Source: a virus (taxonomy: Duplodnaviria; Heunggongvirae; Uroviricota; Caudoviricetes). From it: 5,680 bases of DNA. Made by a program: the position numbers and the translations under genes. The stretch is taken from the IMG/VR virus record IMGVR_UViG_2740892041_000010, positions 1 through 5,680 of that record; one strand, written 5' to 3'. Below the pieces are notes generated by a model, which was not told where the DNA came from, searched no databases, and was given only the letters and a program-made list of their open reading frames with translations. Shown here piece by piece: positions 1 through 5,680 of the stretch. Position 1 is the first letter of the stretch, and each line of letters begins with the position of its first letter.

Positions 1-34
1 GCTTCCGTGGCGCATAGCACTGCCAGCTGAATAA

Positions 35-190
35 CACATCCCCGTCAATACGGCCCTCGCTGTACGCTTACTTTTTTGGCGCCCGCCTGGTATTAACAGA
101 AAAATCAGAGTGGTGTGTCGAACGTGGTCAGCGACAGAACATATCACCTATACCGATTTTTCGTGTCAGTTTGACGAAGTGGTGATCTGA
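35..190 (+). pseudogene. 3' remnant of a tail-tip protein M-like gene, apparently disrupted or truncated
   Basis: The frame ending at TGA 188..190 overlaps the L start (TGATG), as the M-L junction does in lambda. Its last ~39 codons (LFWRPPGINRKIRVVCRTWSATEHITYTDFSCQFDEVVI) resemble my recollection of the lambda M C-terminus only loosely (about a third of positions). There is an in-frame TAA at 32..34 and no ATG or TTG between 35 and 188, only GTG at 110 and 113. All three + frames have stops within the first 34 nt. Confidence 0.35.
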
Positions 191-888
191 TGCAGGACAT
201 ACAACAGGAAACGCTGAATGAATGCATTCGTGCGGAGCAGTCGGCCAGCGTGGTGCTCTGGGAAATCGACCTGACCGAGGTAGGCGGGGATCGCTACTTT
301 TTCTGCAATGAGCAGAACGAGAAAGGAGAGTCTGTCACCTGGCAGAGTCGGCAGTATCAGGCCTATCCCATTCAGGGGAGTGGATTTGAGATGAACGGCA
401 AAGGTGCCAGTGCAAGGCCAACGCTGAAAGTCTCTAATCTGCACGGCATGGTCACCGGGATGGCGGAAGACCTGCAGAGTCTGGTCGGCGGAACGGTGGT
501 CAGGCGTAAGGTTTACGCCCGTTTTCTGGATGCGGTGAACTTCGTCAACGGAAACAGTGACGCCGATCCGGAGCAGGAGGTGATCAGCCGCTGGCGTATT
601 GAGCAGTGCAGCGAACTGAGCGCGGTCAGTGCCTCCTTTGTACTGTCCACGCCGACGGAAACGGACGGCGCTGTTTTTCCGGGGCGCATCATGCTTGCTA
701 ATACCTGCACCTGGACCTATCGCGGTGATGAGTGCGGTTATCACGGTCCGGCGGTCGCGGATGAATATGACCAGCCGACATCCGAAATCACGAAGGATAA
801 ATGCAGCAAATGCCTGAGTGGCTGTAAGTTCCGCAATAATGTCGGCAACTTTGGCGGCTTCCTTTCCATTAACAAACTTTCGCAGTAA
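190..888 (+). CDS. L: Tail tip protein L (lambda gpL family, putative Fe-S cluster-binding tail tip component)
   Basis: Complete 232-codon ORF, ATG 190 to TAA 886..888. The translation (MQDIQQETLNEC...FGGFLSINKLSQ) matches lambda gpL over its full length as I recall it. It has a C-terminal cysteine cluster (C173, C182, C205, C208, C212) and its start overlaps the upstream stop (TGATG). Confidence 0.93.
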   Translation: MQDIQQETLNECIRAEQSASVVLWEIDLTEVGGDRYFFCNEQNEKGESVTWQSRQYQAYPIQGSGFEMNGKGASARPTLKVSNLHGMVTGMAEDLQSLVGGTVVRRKVYARFLDAVNFVNGNSDADPEQEVISRWRIEQCSELSAVSASFVLSTPTETDGAVFPGRIMLANTCTWTYRGDECGYHGPAVADEYDQPTSEITKDKCSKCLSGCKFRNNVGNFGGFLSINKLSQ

Positions 889-893
889 ATCCC

Positions 894-1637
894 ATGACAG
901 AGACAGAATCAGCGATTCTGGCGCACGCCCGGCGATGTGCGCCAGCGGAGTCGTGCGGCTTCGTGGTGAGAACGTCGGAAGGGGAAAGATATTTTCCCTG
1001 CGTGAATATCTCCGGTGAGCCGGAGGAGTATTTCCGGATGTCGCCGGAGGACTGGCTGCGGGCAGAGATGCAGGGTGAGATTGTGGCGCTGGTCCACAGC
1101 CACCCCGGTGGTATGCCCTGGCTGAGTGAGACCGACCGGCGGCTGCAGGTGCAGAGTGATTTGCCGTGGTGGCTGGTTTGCCGGGGAGCGATTCACAAGT
1201 TCCGCTGTGTGCCACATCTTTCCGGGCGGCGCTTTGAGCACGGGGTGACGGACTGTTACACGCTGTTCCGGGATGCTTACCATCTGGCGGGGATTGAGAT
1301 GCCGGATTTTCATCGCGGGGATGACTGGTGGCGTCACGGTCAGAATCTCTATCTGGATAATCTGGAGGCCACAGGGCTGTATCAGGTGCCGTTGTCAGCG
1401 GCGCAGCCGGGCGATGTGCTGCTGTGCTGTTTTGGTTCATCGGTGCCGAATCATGCCGCCATTTACTGTGGTGACAGCGAGCTGCTGCACCATATTCCTG
1501 AACAACTGAGTAAACGAGAGAGGTACACCGACAAATGGCAGCGACGCACACACTCCCTCTGGCGTCACCGGGCATGGCACGCATCTGCCTTTACGGGGAT
1601 TTACAACGATTTGGCCGCCGCATCGACCTTCGAGTGA
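894..1637 (+). CDS. K: Tail assembly protein K, two-domain peptidase (N-terminal JAB/MPN/JAMM metalloprotease-like, C-terminal NlpC/P60 cysteine peptidase-like)
   Basis: 247-codon ORF, ATG 894 to TGA 1635..1637, starting 6 nt after the L stop. JAMM signature H-S-H-x7-S-x2-D at 1095..1136 with an upstream Glu in an AESCG strand (948..950). NlpC/P60-like Cys in DCYTLF (1254..1256) and His in PNHAAIY (1452..1454). An alternative internal start at ATG 1038 would give 199 aa; the 5' boundary is uncertain. Confidence 0.9.
   Translation: MTETESAILAHARRCAPAESCGFVVRTSEGERYFPCVNISGEPEEYFRMSPEDWLRAEMQGEIVALVHSHPGGMPWLSETDRRLQVQSDLPWWLVCRGAIHKFRCVPHLSGRRFEHGVTDCYTLFRDAYHLAGIEMPDFHRGDDWWRHGQNLYLDNLEATGLYQVPLSAAQPGDVLLCCFGSSVPNHAAIYCGDSELLHHIPEQLSKRERYTDKWQRRTHSLWRHRAWHASAFTGIYNDLAAASTFE
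1022..1028 (+). promoter_or_regulatory. Strong SD-like motif upstream of the internal in-frame ATG (1038) of K
   Basis: GGAGGAG with a 9-nt spacer to ATG 1038..1040. It could drive an internal initiation product of K, or simply encode the E-E residues of the long form. Confidence 0.3.
1516..1524 (+). promoter_or_regulatory. Shine-Dalgarno-like element for I, embedded in K coding sequence
   Basis: GAGAGAGGT ending 11 nt upstream of ATG 1535. Confidence 0.4.
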
Positions 1638-2182
1638 AAACGGGGTCCGAAGCCATCCGGGCGCTGGCCATGCAGATCCCGGCGTTTCGTCAGAAACTGA
1701 GCGACGGCTGGTATCAGGTACGCATTGCCGGGCGTGATGCAGGTGAAACTGAATTATCAGCCCGTCTTAATGAACCGCTGGCAAATGGTGCCGTGATCCA
1801 CATTGTGCCGCGTCTGGCGGGAGCCAAAAGTGGCGGTCTTTTTCAGGCTGTGCTGGGGGCGGCGCTGATTGCGGTGGCATGGTGGAACCCTGCAGGTTGG
1901 TTGGGGGCTGCCGCAATTACAGGAATGTATGGTGCGGGGGCCAGTATGGTGCTCGGTGGTGTGGCGCAGATGCTGGCACCGAAAGCCAGAACTCCCCGTA
2001 CACAGACAACGGATAACGGCAAACAGAACACCTATTTCTCCTCACTGGATAACATGGTTGCCCAGGGCAATGTTCTGCCGGTTCTGTACGGTGAAATGCG
2101 CGTGGGGTCACGGGTGATTTCGCAGGAGATCAGCACGGCAGATGAAGGAGATGGTGGTCAGGTTGTGGTGATTGGTCGTTGA
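1535..2182 (+). CDS. I: Tail assembly protein I (lambda gpI family; N-terminal domain followed by Gly-Gly and a Gly/Ala-rich hydrophobic segment)
   Basis: 215-codon ORF, ATG 1535 to TGA 2180..2182, in the -1 frame relative to K and overlapping its 3' end by 103 nt, as in lambda. SD-like GAGAGAGGT at 1516..1524. The translation matches lambda gpI at both ends as I recall it, with a variable hydrophobic middle. Confidence 0.88.
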   Translation: MAATHTLPLASPGMARICLYGDLQRFGRRIDLRVKTGSEAIRALAMQIPAFRQKLSDGWYQVRIAGRDAGETELSARLNEPLANGAVIHIVPRLAGAKSGGLFQAVLGAALIAVAWWNPAGWLGAAAITGMYGAGASMVLGGVAQMLAPKARTPRTQTTDNGKQNTYFSSLDNMVAQGNVLPVLYGEMRVGSRVISQEISTADEGDGGQVVVIGR

Positions 2183-2200
2183 TGCAGAATGTTTTGTGTG

Positions 2201-2230
2201 AAACCGCCTCAGGGCGGTTTTGTCGTTTCT
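2201..2230 (+). terminator. Intrinsic-terminator-like hairpin in the I-J intergenic spacer (function unverified)
   Basis: Perfect 8-bp inverted repeat AAACCGCC (2201..2208) / GGCGGTTT (2213..2220) with a 4-nt loop TCAG, followed by the T-rich TGTCGTTTCT. It sits between the I stop (2182) and the J SD. Confidence 0.3.
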
Positions 2231-2234
2231 GGAG
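2231..2234 (+). promoter_or_regulatory. Shine-Dalgarno for J
   Basis: GGAG 8 nt upstream of ATG 2243. A second purine-rich GAGGA abuts the ATG. Confidence 0.5.
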
Positions 2235-2242
2235 CGTGAGGA

Positions 2243-5200
2243 ATGGGTAAAGGCAGCAGTAAGGGGCATATCCCGCGCGAAGCGAAGGACAACCTGAAAT
2301 CATCCCAGATGCTGAGCGTGATAGACGCCATCAGTGAAGGGCCGATTGAAGGTCCGGTGGATGGATTAAAAAGCGTGCTGCTGAACAGTACGCCGGTGCT
2401 GGACAGTGAGGGGAATACCAATATCTCCGGCGTCACGGTGGTGTTCCGGGCAGGTGAGCAGGAGCAGTCACCGCCGGAGGGATTTGAATCCTCCGGTTCC
2501 GAGACGGTGCTGGGTACGGAAGTGAAATATGAAACGCCGATCACCCGGACCATCACGTCGGCAAACATCGACCGTCTGCGCTTTACCTTCGGTGTACAGG
2601 CACTGGTGGAAACCACCTCAAAGGGAGACAGGAATCCGTCGGAAGTCCGCCTGCTGGTTCAGATACAGCGTAACGGTGGCTGGGTGACGGAAAAAGACAT
2701 CACCATTAAGGGCAAAACCACCTCGCAGTATCTGGCCTCGGTGGTGGTGGGTAACCTGCCGCCGCGCCCGTTTAATATCCGGATGCGCAGGATGACGCCG
2801 GACAGCACCACAGACCAGCTGCAGAACAAAACGCTCTGGTCGTCATACACCGAGATCATCGATGTGAAACAGTGCTACCCGAACACGGCACTGGTCGGCG
2901 TACAGGTGGACTCGGAGCAGTTCGGCAGCCAGCAGGTGAGCCGTAATTATCATCTTCGCGGGCGCATTCTGCAGGTGCCGTCGAACTATAACCCGCAGAC
3001 GCGGCAATACAGCGGTATCTGGGACGGAACGTTAAAACCAGCATACAGCAACAACATGGCCTGGTGTCTGTGGGATATGCTGACCCACCCGCGCTACGGC
3101 ATGGGGAAACGTCTTGGTGCGGCGGATGTGGACAAATGGGCGCTGTATGTCATCGGCCAGTACTGCGACCAGTCAGTGCCGGACGGCTTTGGCGGCACGG
3201 AGCCGCGCATCACCTGTAATGCGTACCTGACCACACAGCGCAAGGCGTGGGATGTGCTCAGTGATTTCTGCTCGGCGATGCGCTGTATGCCGGTATGGAA
3301 CGGGCAGACGCTGACGTTCGTGCAGGACCGACAGTCGGATAAGGTGTGGACCTATAACCGCAGTAATGTGGTGATGCCGGATGATGGCGCGCCGTTCCGC
3401 TACAGCTTCAGCGCCCTGAAGGACCGCCATAATGCCGTTGAGGTGAACTGGATTGACCCGAACAACGGCTGGGAGACGGCGACAGAGCTTGTTGAAGATA
3501 CGCAGGCCATTGCCCGTTACGGTCGTAATGTCACGAAGATGGATGCCTTTGGCTGTACCAGCCGGGGGCAGGCACACCGCGCCGGGCTGTGGCTGATTAA
3601 AACGGAACTGCTGGAAACGCAGACCGTGGATTTCAGCGTGGGCGCAGAAGGGCTTCGCCATGTGCCGGGCGATGTTATTGAAATCTGCGATGATGACTAT
3701 GCCGGTATCAGCACCGGTGGTCGCGTGTTGGCGGTGAACAGCCAGACCCGGACGCTGACGCTCGACCGTGAAATCACGCTGCCATCCTCCGGTACCACGC
3801 TGATAAGCCTGGTTGACGGAAGTGGCAATCCGGTCAGCGTGGAGGTTCAGTCCGTCACCGACGGACTTAAGGTGAAAGTGAATCGGGTTCCTGACGGCGT
3901 TGCAGAATACAGTGTGTGGGGGCTGAAGTTGCCGACGTTGCGTCAGCGCCTGTTCCGCTGTGTGAGTATCCGTGAGAACGATGACGGCACGTATGCCATC
4001 ACTGCCGTGCAGCATGTACCGGAAAAAGAAGCCATCGTGGATAACGGGGCGCACTTTGACGGCGACCAGAGCGGCACGGTGAATGGTGTCACGCCGCCAG
4101 CGGTGCAGCACCTGACCGCCGAAGTCACCGCAGACAGCGGGGAATACCAGGTGCTGGCGCGCTGGGATACGCCGAAGGTGGTGAAGGGCGTGAGCTTTAT
4201 GCTTCGCCTGACCGTGGCAGCGGATGACGGCAGTGAGCGGCTGGTCAGCACGGCCCGGACGACGGAAACCACATACCGCTTCACGCAACTGGCGCCAGGG
4301 AACTACAGGCTGACAGTCCGGGCGGCAAATGCCTGGGGGCAGCAGGGCGATCCGGCATCGGTATCGTTCCGTATTGCCGCACCGGCAGCGCCGTCGCGGA
4401 TTGAGCTGACGCCGGGCTATTTTCAGATAACCGCCACGCCCCATCTTGCCGTTTATGATCCGACGGTACAGTTTGAGTTCTGGTTCTCGGAAAAGCGGAT
4501 TGCGGATATCAGGCAGGTTGAAACCACAGCCCGCTATCTTGGCACGGCGCTGTACTGGATAGCTGCCAGTATCAATATCAAACCGGGCCATGATTATTAT
4601 TTTTACATCCGCAGTGTGAACACCGTTGGCAAATCGGCATTTGTGGAGGCTGTTGGCCAGCCGAGTGATGATGCATCCGGCTATCTGGATTTTTTCAAAG
4701 GAGAGATAGGGAAAACCCATCTGGCTCAGGAGCTGTGGACGCAGATTGATAACGGTCAGCTTGCGCCTGACCTGGCTGAAATCAGGACGTCCATTACGGA
4801 TGTCAGCAATGAAATCACGCAGACCGTCAATAAGAAACTGGAAGACCAGAGTGCGGCAATTCAGCAGATACAGAAGGTTCAGGTTGATACAAATAATAAC
4901 CTGAACAGCATGTGGGCTGTGAAGCTGCAGCAGATGCAGGACGGACGCCTTTATATCGCGGGTATTGGTGCCGGTATTGAGAACACCCCTGACGGCATGC
5001 AGAGTCAGGTGCTGCTGGCGGCGGACAGGATTGCGATGGTTAATCCTGCGAATGGCAACACAAAGCCGATGTTTGTTGGTCAGGGCGATCAGATATTCAT
5101 GAACGAAGTGTTCCTGAAATATCTGACGGCTCCCACCATTACCAGCGGCGGTAATCCTCCGGCATTTTCCCTGACACCGGACGGGCGGCTGACGGCGAAA

Positions 5201-5680
5201 AATGCCGATATCAGCGGTAGCGTGAATGCGAACTCCGGGACGCTCAACAACGTCACGATTAACGAGAACTGTCGGGTTCTGGGAAAACTGTCCGCGAACC
5301 AGATTGAAGGCGATCTCGTTAAAACAGTGGGCAAAGCTTTCCCCCGGGACTCCCGTGCACCGGAGCGGTGGCCATCAGGAACCATTACCGTCAGGGTTTA
5401 TGACGATCAGCCGTTTGACCGGCAAATTGTTATTCCAGCGGTGGCTTTCAGCGGTGCCAGACATGAACGGGAGAATAGCGATACTTATTCGTCATGCCGC
5501 CTGATAGTGAAGAAAAACGGGGCTGAAATTTATAACCGAACGGCTCTGGATAATACTCTGATTTACACGGGTGTTATTGATATGCCTGCAGGCAGTGGCG
5601 TAATGACACTGGAGTTTTCTGTATCAGCATGGTGGGTAAATGGCTGGTATCCCACAGCAAGTATCAGCGATTTGCTGGTT
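2243..5680 (+). CDS. J: Central tail fibre / host specificity protein J (tail tip attachment protein), 3' end beyond window
   Basis: Open frame from ATG 2243 (GGAG at 2231..2234, 8 nt spacer) to the window end: 1146 codons with no stop. It is absent from the ORF track presumably because it is not terminated within the window. The N-terminal ~815 codons (MGKGSSKGH...YLDFFKG) are near-identical to lambda J as I recall it. The distal part diverges from lambda but keeps recognisable J motifs ([34 protein letters not shown]). Confidence 0.93.
4088..4680 (+). other. Two tandem fibronectin type III-like modules within J
   Basis: Two consecutive ~100-aa segments with an FN3-like pattern (conserved Trp/Tyr, hydrophobic alternation, ...[13 protein letters not shown]... 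and ...[14 protein letters not shown]...). Lambda-type J proteins are known to carry FN3 repeats. Boundaries are approximate. Confidence 0.45.

Follow-up and report, generated by a model that had tools for sequence, protein, structure and literature searches.

The gpJ protein of phage lambda (P03749; PDB 8iyk, 8xck, 8xcj) binds the outer membrane protein LamB. Its domain order is FNIII-2, a shaft of alpha-helices, the beta-prism of the central straight fibre and an Ig-like receptor domain. According to the cryo-EM structures with LamB, the receptor domain pushes four loops at its bottom into LamB and the receptor domains then spread; the prism undergoes a twist and the shaft a flip, residues 841–861 refold from helix to beta-strands, and in the last steps the FNIII strings are shed and the hub becomes open (PMC11101478). 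In the present study, gene J from a 5,680-nucleotide stretch of viral DNA (IMG/VR record IMGVR_UViG_2740892041_000010, positions 1 to 5,680; the whole stretch is called the window below) was compared with lambda J and with the J genes of related phages and prophages.

The modularity of the "specificity region" of lambda J (aa 960–1132) has already been demonstrated on 1,207 natural homologues, in a study that also mentioned an unexplained nested indel outside this region (PMC6646904). Brodel et al. (Nature 2024) grafted the C-termini of gpJ proteins from E. coli prophages onto lambda J at aa 964, and both of the resulting chimeras, A8 and 1A2, deliver DNA via OmpC into cells deleted for lamB. 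Delivery by gpJ-1A2 into K-12 cells deleted for lamB and ompC occurred only when the OmpC of EDL933 was supplied; 1A2 hardly works with the OmpC of K-12, and A8 and 1A2 differ in the OmpC alleles that they accept (PMC11338833). gpJ-1A2 also serves as tail tip in the anti-O157 particle EB003 (bioRxiv 10.1101/2025.02.28.640725).

The J gene of the window

In the window, genes L, K and I are followed by J. It is read on the plus strand from position 2243 and runs without a stop for 1146 codons to the window end at 5680, as had been noted in an earlier reading of the nucleotide sequence (the original prediction). Six Pfam families were found in the protein, all above the curated cut-offs and in the order known from lambda: FNIII-A_GpJ (aa 86–207), Phage-tail_3 (aa 330–498), Ig_J (aa 610–714), Ig_J_second, which is the second Ig/FNIII domain (aa 716–818), Phage_Tail_Tip (aa 872–1000) and Ig_GpJ_C, the receptor-binding domain (RBD; aa 1029–1146, E = 7.7e-31). 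No Pfam model matched aa 819–871. Judged by this architecture, by gene order and by homology, the window J is a lambda-type gpJ (TipJ), the central tail fibre of a lambda-like E. coli prophage. It shares with lambda gpJ the position in the series M-L-K-I-J, the order of the Pfam domains and the fold family of Ig_GpJ_C, and by analogy it would assemble as a trimer into the tail tip and open when triggered by a receptor.

Many complete E. coli genomes contain prophages that match nucleotides 72–5680 of the window with 99.9% identity. In these near-identical copies the full-length J protein has 1159 aa, meaning that the last 13 codons lie beyond the window, and J is followed by lom and a side tail fibre gene (stf), as in lambda. 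The RefSeq protein WP_001551065.1 (strain NMBU_W05E18, 1159 aa) matches the window J at 1144 of 1146 residues, and WP_094338816.1, which has the same length, at 1129 of 1146; both represent essentially the same allele, with lom and stf downstream. In the PGAP annotation the gene is already identified as gpJ, under the name "phage attachment tail tip protein J". The open frame and the near-identity to a 1159-aa RefSeq gpJ indicate that the J ORF is an intact gene, and a pseudogene reading was rejected on the same two grounds. Two further ORFs within J, one on the minus strand (5089–5385) and one out of frame on the plus strand (5226–5504), were treated as by-products of the J frame.

Two observations on related prophages would fit the idea that the prophage is defective and its distal J a decaying remnant without present function. 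The NMBU_W05E18 prophage, with 99.9% identity to the window, has a tape-measure gene (L012, 1555–4788) that contains an internal stop and is annotated as a pseudogene, and some prophages carrying this J allele may therefore be defective, which counts against a functional reading of the allele. The Stx1 prophage VT1-Sakai (L003, 2542–6014) has the same distal J type, with 93% DNA identity, and there the annotation splits J into two overlapping fragments, "truncated by a mutation". Against decay stand the 1146 open codons, the 99.9% DNA conservation across many genomes, and the occurrence of the same allele in phages for which a propagation host is on record: 640R1, PhiR46_1 and PhiR55_1 have the same J architecture, with 94–95% DNA identity. 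Decay is accordingly considered very unlikely, and J is treated below as an intact gene.

Mosaic structure of distal J

The proximal part of J (aa 1–820; 2243–4702, plus strand), which comprises the hub and two Ig/FNIII domains and ends in YLDFFKG, is 97% identical to lambda J at the protein level. The statement in the original prediction that J resembles lambda up to codon ~820 was borne out, and DFFKG (aa 816–820) lies at nt 4688–4702, where it had been placed. In windows of 40 aa, the protein identity to lambda J was 0.92–1.00 up to aa 800, 0.55 for aa 801–840 and 0.12 for aa 841–880. It rose to 0.45 and 0.70 in the following two windows and to 0.98 for aa 961–1000, and was 0.23–0.50 from there to the end. 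The DNA identity was ~95% up to nt ~4650, 0–60% between 4710 and 5040, 83–93% between 5070 and 5250, and 50–57% from 5250 on. This sliding-window comparison, which the original prediction had named as a check, showed the distal region to be far less lambda-like than the proximal region. Inside the proximal part, a short patch (3841–3960; J aa ~534–573) has 87–88% DNA identity both to lambda and to the copy in the TUM14771 prophage, with flanks of 98–100%; from the alignment, it looks like a short gene-conversion tract.

Three junctions were located, at ~4650–4710, ~5040–5070 and ~5250. The first lies at the boundary between FNIII-2 and the shaft: the DNA identity to lambda was 0.93–0.97 in 4560–4649, 0.67–0.83 in 4650–4709 and 0.0–0.6 in 4710–4769, and exactly where Ig_J_second ends, the protein identity drops from 97% to 32%. 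A non-lambda distal allele, joined abruptly next to DFFKG, was thus found as proposed. The single breakpoint envisaged there has to be replaced by three junctions, and divergence from lambda begins already ~40 nt 5' of DFFKG (GQPSDDAS in the window, GRASDDAE in lambda). In cdtI a hybrid sequence was found at the first junction zone, indicating that junction positions vary between phages. For annotation, distal J is best read as three modules, i.e. a shaft, a conserved island and a receptor domain.

The long-shaft module (aa 821–935; 4703–5047, plus strand) corresponds to the alpha-helical shaft and the upper beta-prism fibre. It is 32% identical to lambda and 98–100% identical to Chlobot, 1H12 and cdtI, which share this shaft with the window yet carry other RBDs. 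Relative to lambda it has 28 extra residues, namely aa 836–856 (21 residues) and aa 860–866 (QTVNKKL), together spanning nt 4748–4840 on the plus strand, at which lambda, PhiR47_1, 2G7b and h434 have gaps in the alignment of eleven J proteins (A1). The longer protein that had been predicted was confirmed (1159 aa, compared with 1132 aa for lambda J, NC_001416 15505–18903), and in the alignment the excess of 27 aa is made up of 28 aa gained in the shaft and 1 aa lost in the RBD. The C-terminus was considered as the source of the extra length and rejected, the RBD being 1 aa shorter than that of lambda and the excess lying entirely in the shaft.

The conserved island (aa 936–1003; 5048–5251, plus strand) corresponds to the lower beta-prism. 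It is 78–94% identical across all J types compared, and 88% identical to lambda (83–93% at the DNA level). The short conserved stretches that had been recognized in distal J, including NANSGTL, PFDRQIV and VIDMPAG, were all present in the alignment with lambda. Residue 964 of lambda, a known natural and engineering fusion point, is equivalent to aa 992 of the window and falls within the island, which acts as a homology bridge from the shaft to the RBD modules.

The RBD module (aa 1004–1146, the last 13 aa lying beyond the window; 5252–5680, plus strand) was assigned to the 1A2 type from the Pfam Ig_GpJ_C match, the PDB matches and the RBD identities. It is 99% identical to PhiR47_1, 93–94% to 640R1, 2G7b and Stx2a phages, and 42–46% to lambda.

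Allele combinations and recombination

In A1, the percent identity to the window was calculated separately for the proximal part (aa 1–818), the shaft (821–935), the island (936–1003) and the RBD (1004–1146). The values, in this order, were 97, 32, 88 and 42 for lambda and 97, 33, 85 and 39 for lambda h434. PhiR47_1 (1131 aa; 97, 32, 90 and 99) and 2G7b (1131 aa; 98, 32, 93 and 94) combine a short shaft with an RBD close to that of the window, and Stx2a_JNE090861 gave 73, 59, 78 and 93. The long shaft was found together with other RBDs in Chlobot (97, 100, 94 and 57), 1H12 (98, 98, 94 and 61) and cdtI (98, 99, 94 and 39). Thus lambda-, 434- and window-type RBDs are all found on the short shaft, and window-, A8-, phi21- and 434-like RBDs on the long one. 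These comparisons indicate that shaft and RBD alleles assort independently and that J is a recombining modular gene; the same checkerboard of pairings means that no particular receptor goes with a given shaft allele.

Diversifying selection is known to act on distal J (PMC6646904), and gradual divergence without recombination could in principle have produced a distal region so unlike that of lambda. The identity steps are abrupt, however, falling from 95% to less than 50% within ~60 nt, and each of the shaft/RBD combinations examined exists in some phage, a checkerboard that already contradicts gradual change; this explanation is hardly credible. The abrupt steps and the checkerboard argue instead for homologous recombination at conserved flanks. 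The combination seen in the window would have arisen by such exchange between lambdoid phages or prophages, with crossovers presumably placed in the end of FNIII-2 with DFFKG, in the island, and in the C-terminal strand with lom. The nested indel mentioned in PMC6646904 is probably the shaft insertion described here.

The frequency of the alleles was determined in 5,426 complete E. coli genomes, a genome being counted when at least 80% of the query was covered. The whole distal region (4703–5680) was present in 2,837 of these genomes and the long shaft alone (4703–5068) in 3,559, compared with 95 for the distal J of lambda, whose best 8 matches listed were all in laboratory strains, e.g. K-12 and DE3 derivatives. 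Given these counts and the laboratory origin of the best lambda-type matches, the "non-lambda" distal allele is the majority natural form in E. coli, and lambda's own is a rarity. The textbook lambda J is therefore not a representative allele: in natural E. coli, most lambdoid prophages carry the long shaft together with OmpC-type or other RBDs. The J allele and its modularity have already been published and annotated; the allele is real, had been correctly interpreted, and is ordinary.

Receptor specificity

Among clean sequences, the RBD of the window was 93% identical, with no internal gaps, to the 640R1 type (1A2 subtype). The identity was 62% to phi21 and 1H12, 59% to Chlobot, 46% to lambda and 45% to h434. 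Comparison with the lambda specificity region gave 42–46% identity, with S1012 and D1107 of lambda replaced by P and W, respectively; at the sequence level the RBD is not closely similar to the LamB-binding domain of lambda. When the distal 346 aa were compared with PDB entries, the best match was A8 gpJ 713, an OmpC binder (9wca/9wcb, E = 4e-119), followed by the LamB-bound lambda gpJ structures 8xcj/8xck (E ~1e-102; 4e-102 for 8xcj) and by 8iyk (E ~1e-101).

The published 1A2 sequence was available as supplementary DNA that had been machine-read with errors, and a frameshift-aware alignment was used. In it, aa 992–1146 of the window were identical to 1A2 at 133 of 154 positions, at least 9 of the mismatches being reading artefacts, giving a true identity of ~92–93%; the corresponding value for A8 was 92 of 154. 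The window RBD and 1A2 also share the indel pattern and the C-terminal tail, and the 1A2 fusion point lies inside the conserved island of the window. Because the RBD shares 93% identity with the 1A2 type, which works through OmpC, OmpC is the most likely receptor, and the window allele, which differs from lambda gpJ in an RBD of 42–46% identity, a shaft of 32% identity and 28 additional residues, probably does not bind LamB. This agrees with the different or modified receptor that had been anticipated from the divergence of distal J. The hosts used to propagate phages with a window-type RBD were ECOR13 or E. coli C and not K-12, which fits the failure of 1A2 on K-12 OmpC and is weak evidence in the same direction. 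No experimentally determined receptor was found for phages with this RBD (the PhiR panel); the SNIPE paper on this panel reports ManYZ dependence, not outer-membrane receptors. A receptor-prediction preprint of 2026 covers Drexlerviridae-type GpJ and leaves out the C-terminal domain of lambda.

Several points weigh against this assignment. Twelve residues differ from the 1A2 subtype (993, 998, 1073, 1078, 1079, 1081, 1090, 1109, 1118, 1120, 1131 and 1134), and most of them are clustered at the equivalents of lambda 1045–1053, 1090–1092 and 1103–1106, adjoining the receptor-switch hot spots at lambda 1048/1049 and 1107 (PMC6646904). The 1A2 sequence itself was compared as machine-read text containing errors. 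OmpC use was demonstrated for 1A2 itself, assayed on the short lambda shaft, and would extend by homology to the subtype of the window, whose J has the long shaft. Phage phi21 natively uses LamB, and one J mutation adds the use of OmpC (PMC11336670); its RBD and that of A8 are 81% identical despite the different receptors. The latter two observations suggest that a few substitutions can change the receptor class, and since such a change can occur at more than 80% identity, receptors should be predicted cautiously, and only from the last ~155 residues.

The example of phi21 also lends some weight to the view that LamB is still the receptor of the RBD, either by itself or in addition to OmpC, divergence from lambda not being equivalent to a change of receptor. 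The phi21 RBD is only 48% identical to that of lambda and natively recognizes LamB, a single mutation is sufficient for OmpC use, and the twelve differences from the OmpC-validated subtype sit at host-range hot spots. The window RBD is, however, less similar to phi21 (62%) and lambda (46%) than to the 1A2 type (93%), and 1A2, obtained by selection in a lamB deletion strain, depends on OmpC. Retention of LamB is judged improbable.

The concentration of the same differences in likely receptor-contact loops could alternatively mean that another outer-membrane protein is recognized (e.g. OmpF, some other porin or a protein specific to certain strains), or that recognition is limited to a small set of OmpC alleles outside the range of 1A2. 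A8 and 1A2 already differ in the OmpC alleles accepted, and the J protein of Gifsy-1 binds OmpC, OmpX and BtuB (PMC12312913). Against this stand the 93% identity and the indel pattern shared with the 1A2 type, and nothing points to another receptor; this alternative appears slightly less probable still than retention of LamB. OmpC rather than LamB is thus most probably the receptor of the window RBD, with appreciable doubt remaining. As a whole, the description of the window J as an intact modular gpJ of recombinant origin, with a long shaft and a 1A2-type RBD that most probably uses OmpC, is considered likely to be correct. The RBD subtype offers a ready-made, naturally occurring variant of the 1A2 domain, which is already in use in engineered lambda delivery particles, and could widen or shift the coverage of OmpC alleles.

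The closest relatives differ from the window J in different modules. Chlobot J shares the long shaft (100%) and the island (94%), and A8 was the best PDB match; the RBD of both is 57–59% identical to that of the window and differs in loop lengths, with a 4-aa deletion and a 5-aa insertion. The J protein of phi21 has a similar total length (1160 aa) and the long shaft (98% in 1H12), differing in its RBD. The receptor domains of phi21 (L013, 6575–7078) and Lambda_1H12 (L010, 4468–4971) are identical. The RBD of Chlobot matches the "A8 gpJ" of the PDB at 154 of 155 residues, showing that the engineered A8 domain has a natural phage counterpart.

The long shaft and the mode of action

By homology with the lambda gpJ–LamB structures, the bottom loops of the trimeric RBD would enter a trimeric outer-membrane porin, most probably OmpC. 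The spreading of the RBDs would then be passed upward through the prism and the shaft, the shaft would flip and partly refold, and the FNIII strings would drop off and the hub open, leading to DNA ejection.

In a single-sequence AlphaFold2 model of aa 801–1146, helices were predicted at aa 812–821, 826–836 and 841–885, with pLDDT values of 50–72 in this part and a mean of 45 for the whole model. The model is consistent with the 28-residue insertion forming a longer helical shaft; the low confidence (mean pLDDT 45) and the weak heptad signal count against this helix call. A canonical coiled coil is not claimed, the simple heptad-periodicity score being weak (0.52, background 0.37).

About two-thirds of complete E. 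coli genomes have the longer shaft. Its effect is probably limited to extending the fibre by a few nanometres. In lambda, the corresponding segment (aa 841–861) refolds during receptor-triggered opening, and shaft length could for this reason affect triggering. That the long shaft is non-neutral, altering either the reach of the fibre through O-antigen or capsule or the trigger threshold for DNA ejection independently of the RBD, is a tentative proposal and rather unlikely. Nothing in this locus is new in kind; the one point of some interest is whether so widespread a long shaft has a functional consequence.

Neighbouring genes and related records

Three genes precede J, all on the plus strand. 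Gene L (190–888) encodes the minor tail protein L of 232 aa (Pfam Phage_tail_L, E = 4.5e-98) and is annotated as L in matching phages and genomes. Gene K (894–1637) encodes a JAB/NlpC-P60 tail assembly protein of 247 aa (Pfam Prok-JAB and NLPC_P60), annotated as K or C40 peptidase in relatives. Gene I (1535–2182) encodes the tail assembly protein I of 215 aa (Pfam Lambda_tail_I), and its start overlaps the end of K, as in lambda.

Over its whole length, the product of gene I has 79% identity to lambda I, and 8 aa are deleted in its hydrophobic middle (aa ~100–140). A second mosaic patch was found in this gene, at 1681–1920 (aa ~50–130), with a DNA identity to lambda of 55–73%. The region of the deletion corresponds roughly to the H1/H2 helices of lambda gpI, which have been proposed to be membrane-active (PMC11101478). 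At the beginning of the window (1–240; end of M and start of L) the DNA identity to lambda is only 41–67%, and nt 1–120 are only 65% identical even to the TUM14771 prophage, which is otherwise near-identical.

In a record named "Campylobacter phage CJLB-4" (MW057783.1, 48.4 kb) and labelled as a Campylobacter jejuni phage, the J RBD at 18350–18727 gave the same match statistics as that of lambda (45.2% identity, 114 bits), which suggests that this record represents lambda or lambda contamination. In cdtI (L007, 7414–9346) and lambda h434 imm21 (L009, 7485–9399), J, lom and stf are followed by type III effector genes (cif, an nleH-like gene, nleB and nleC), which represent cargo located behind the tail-fibre genes.

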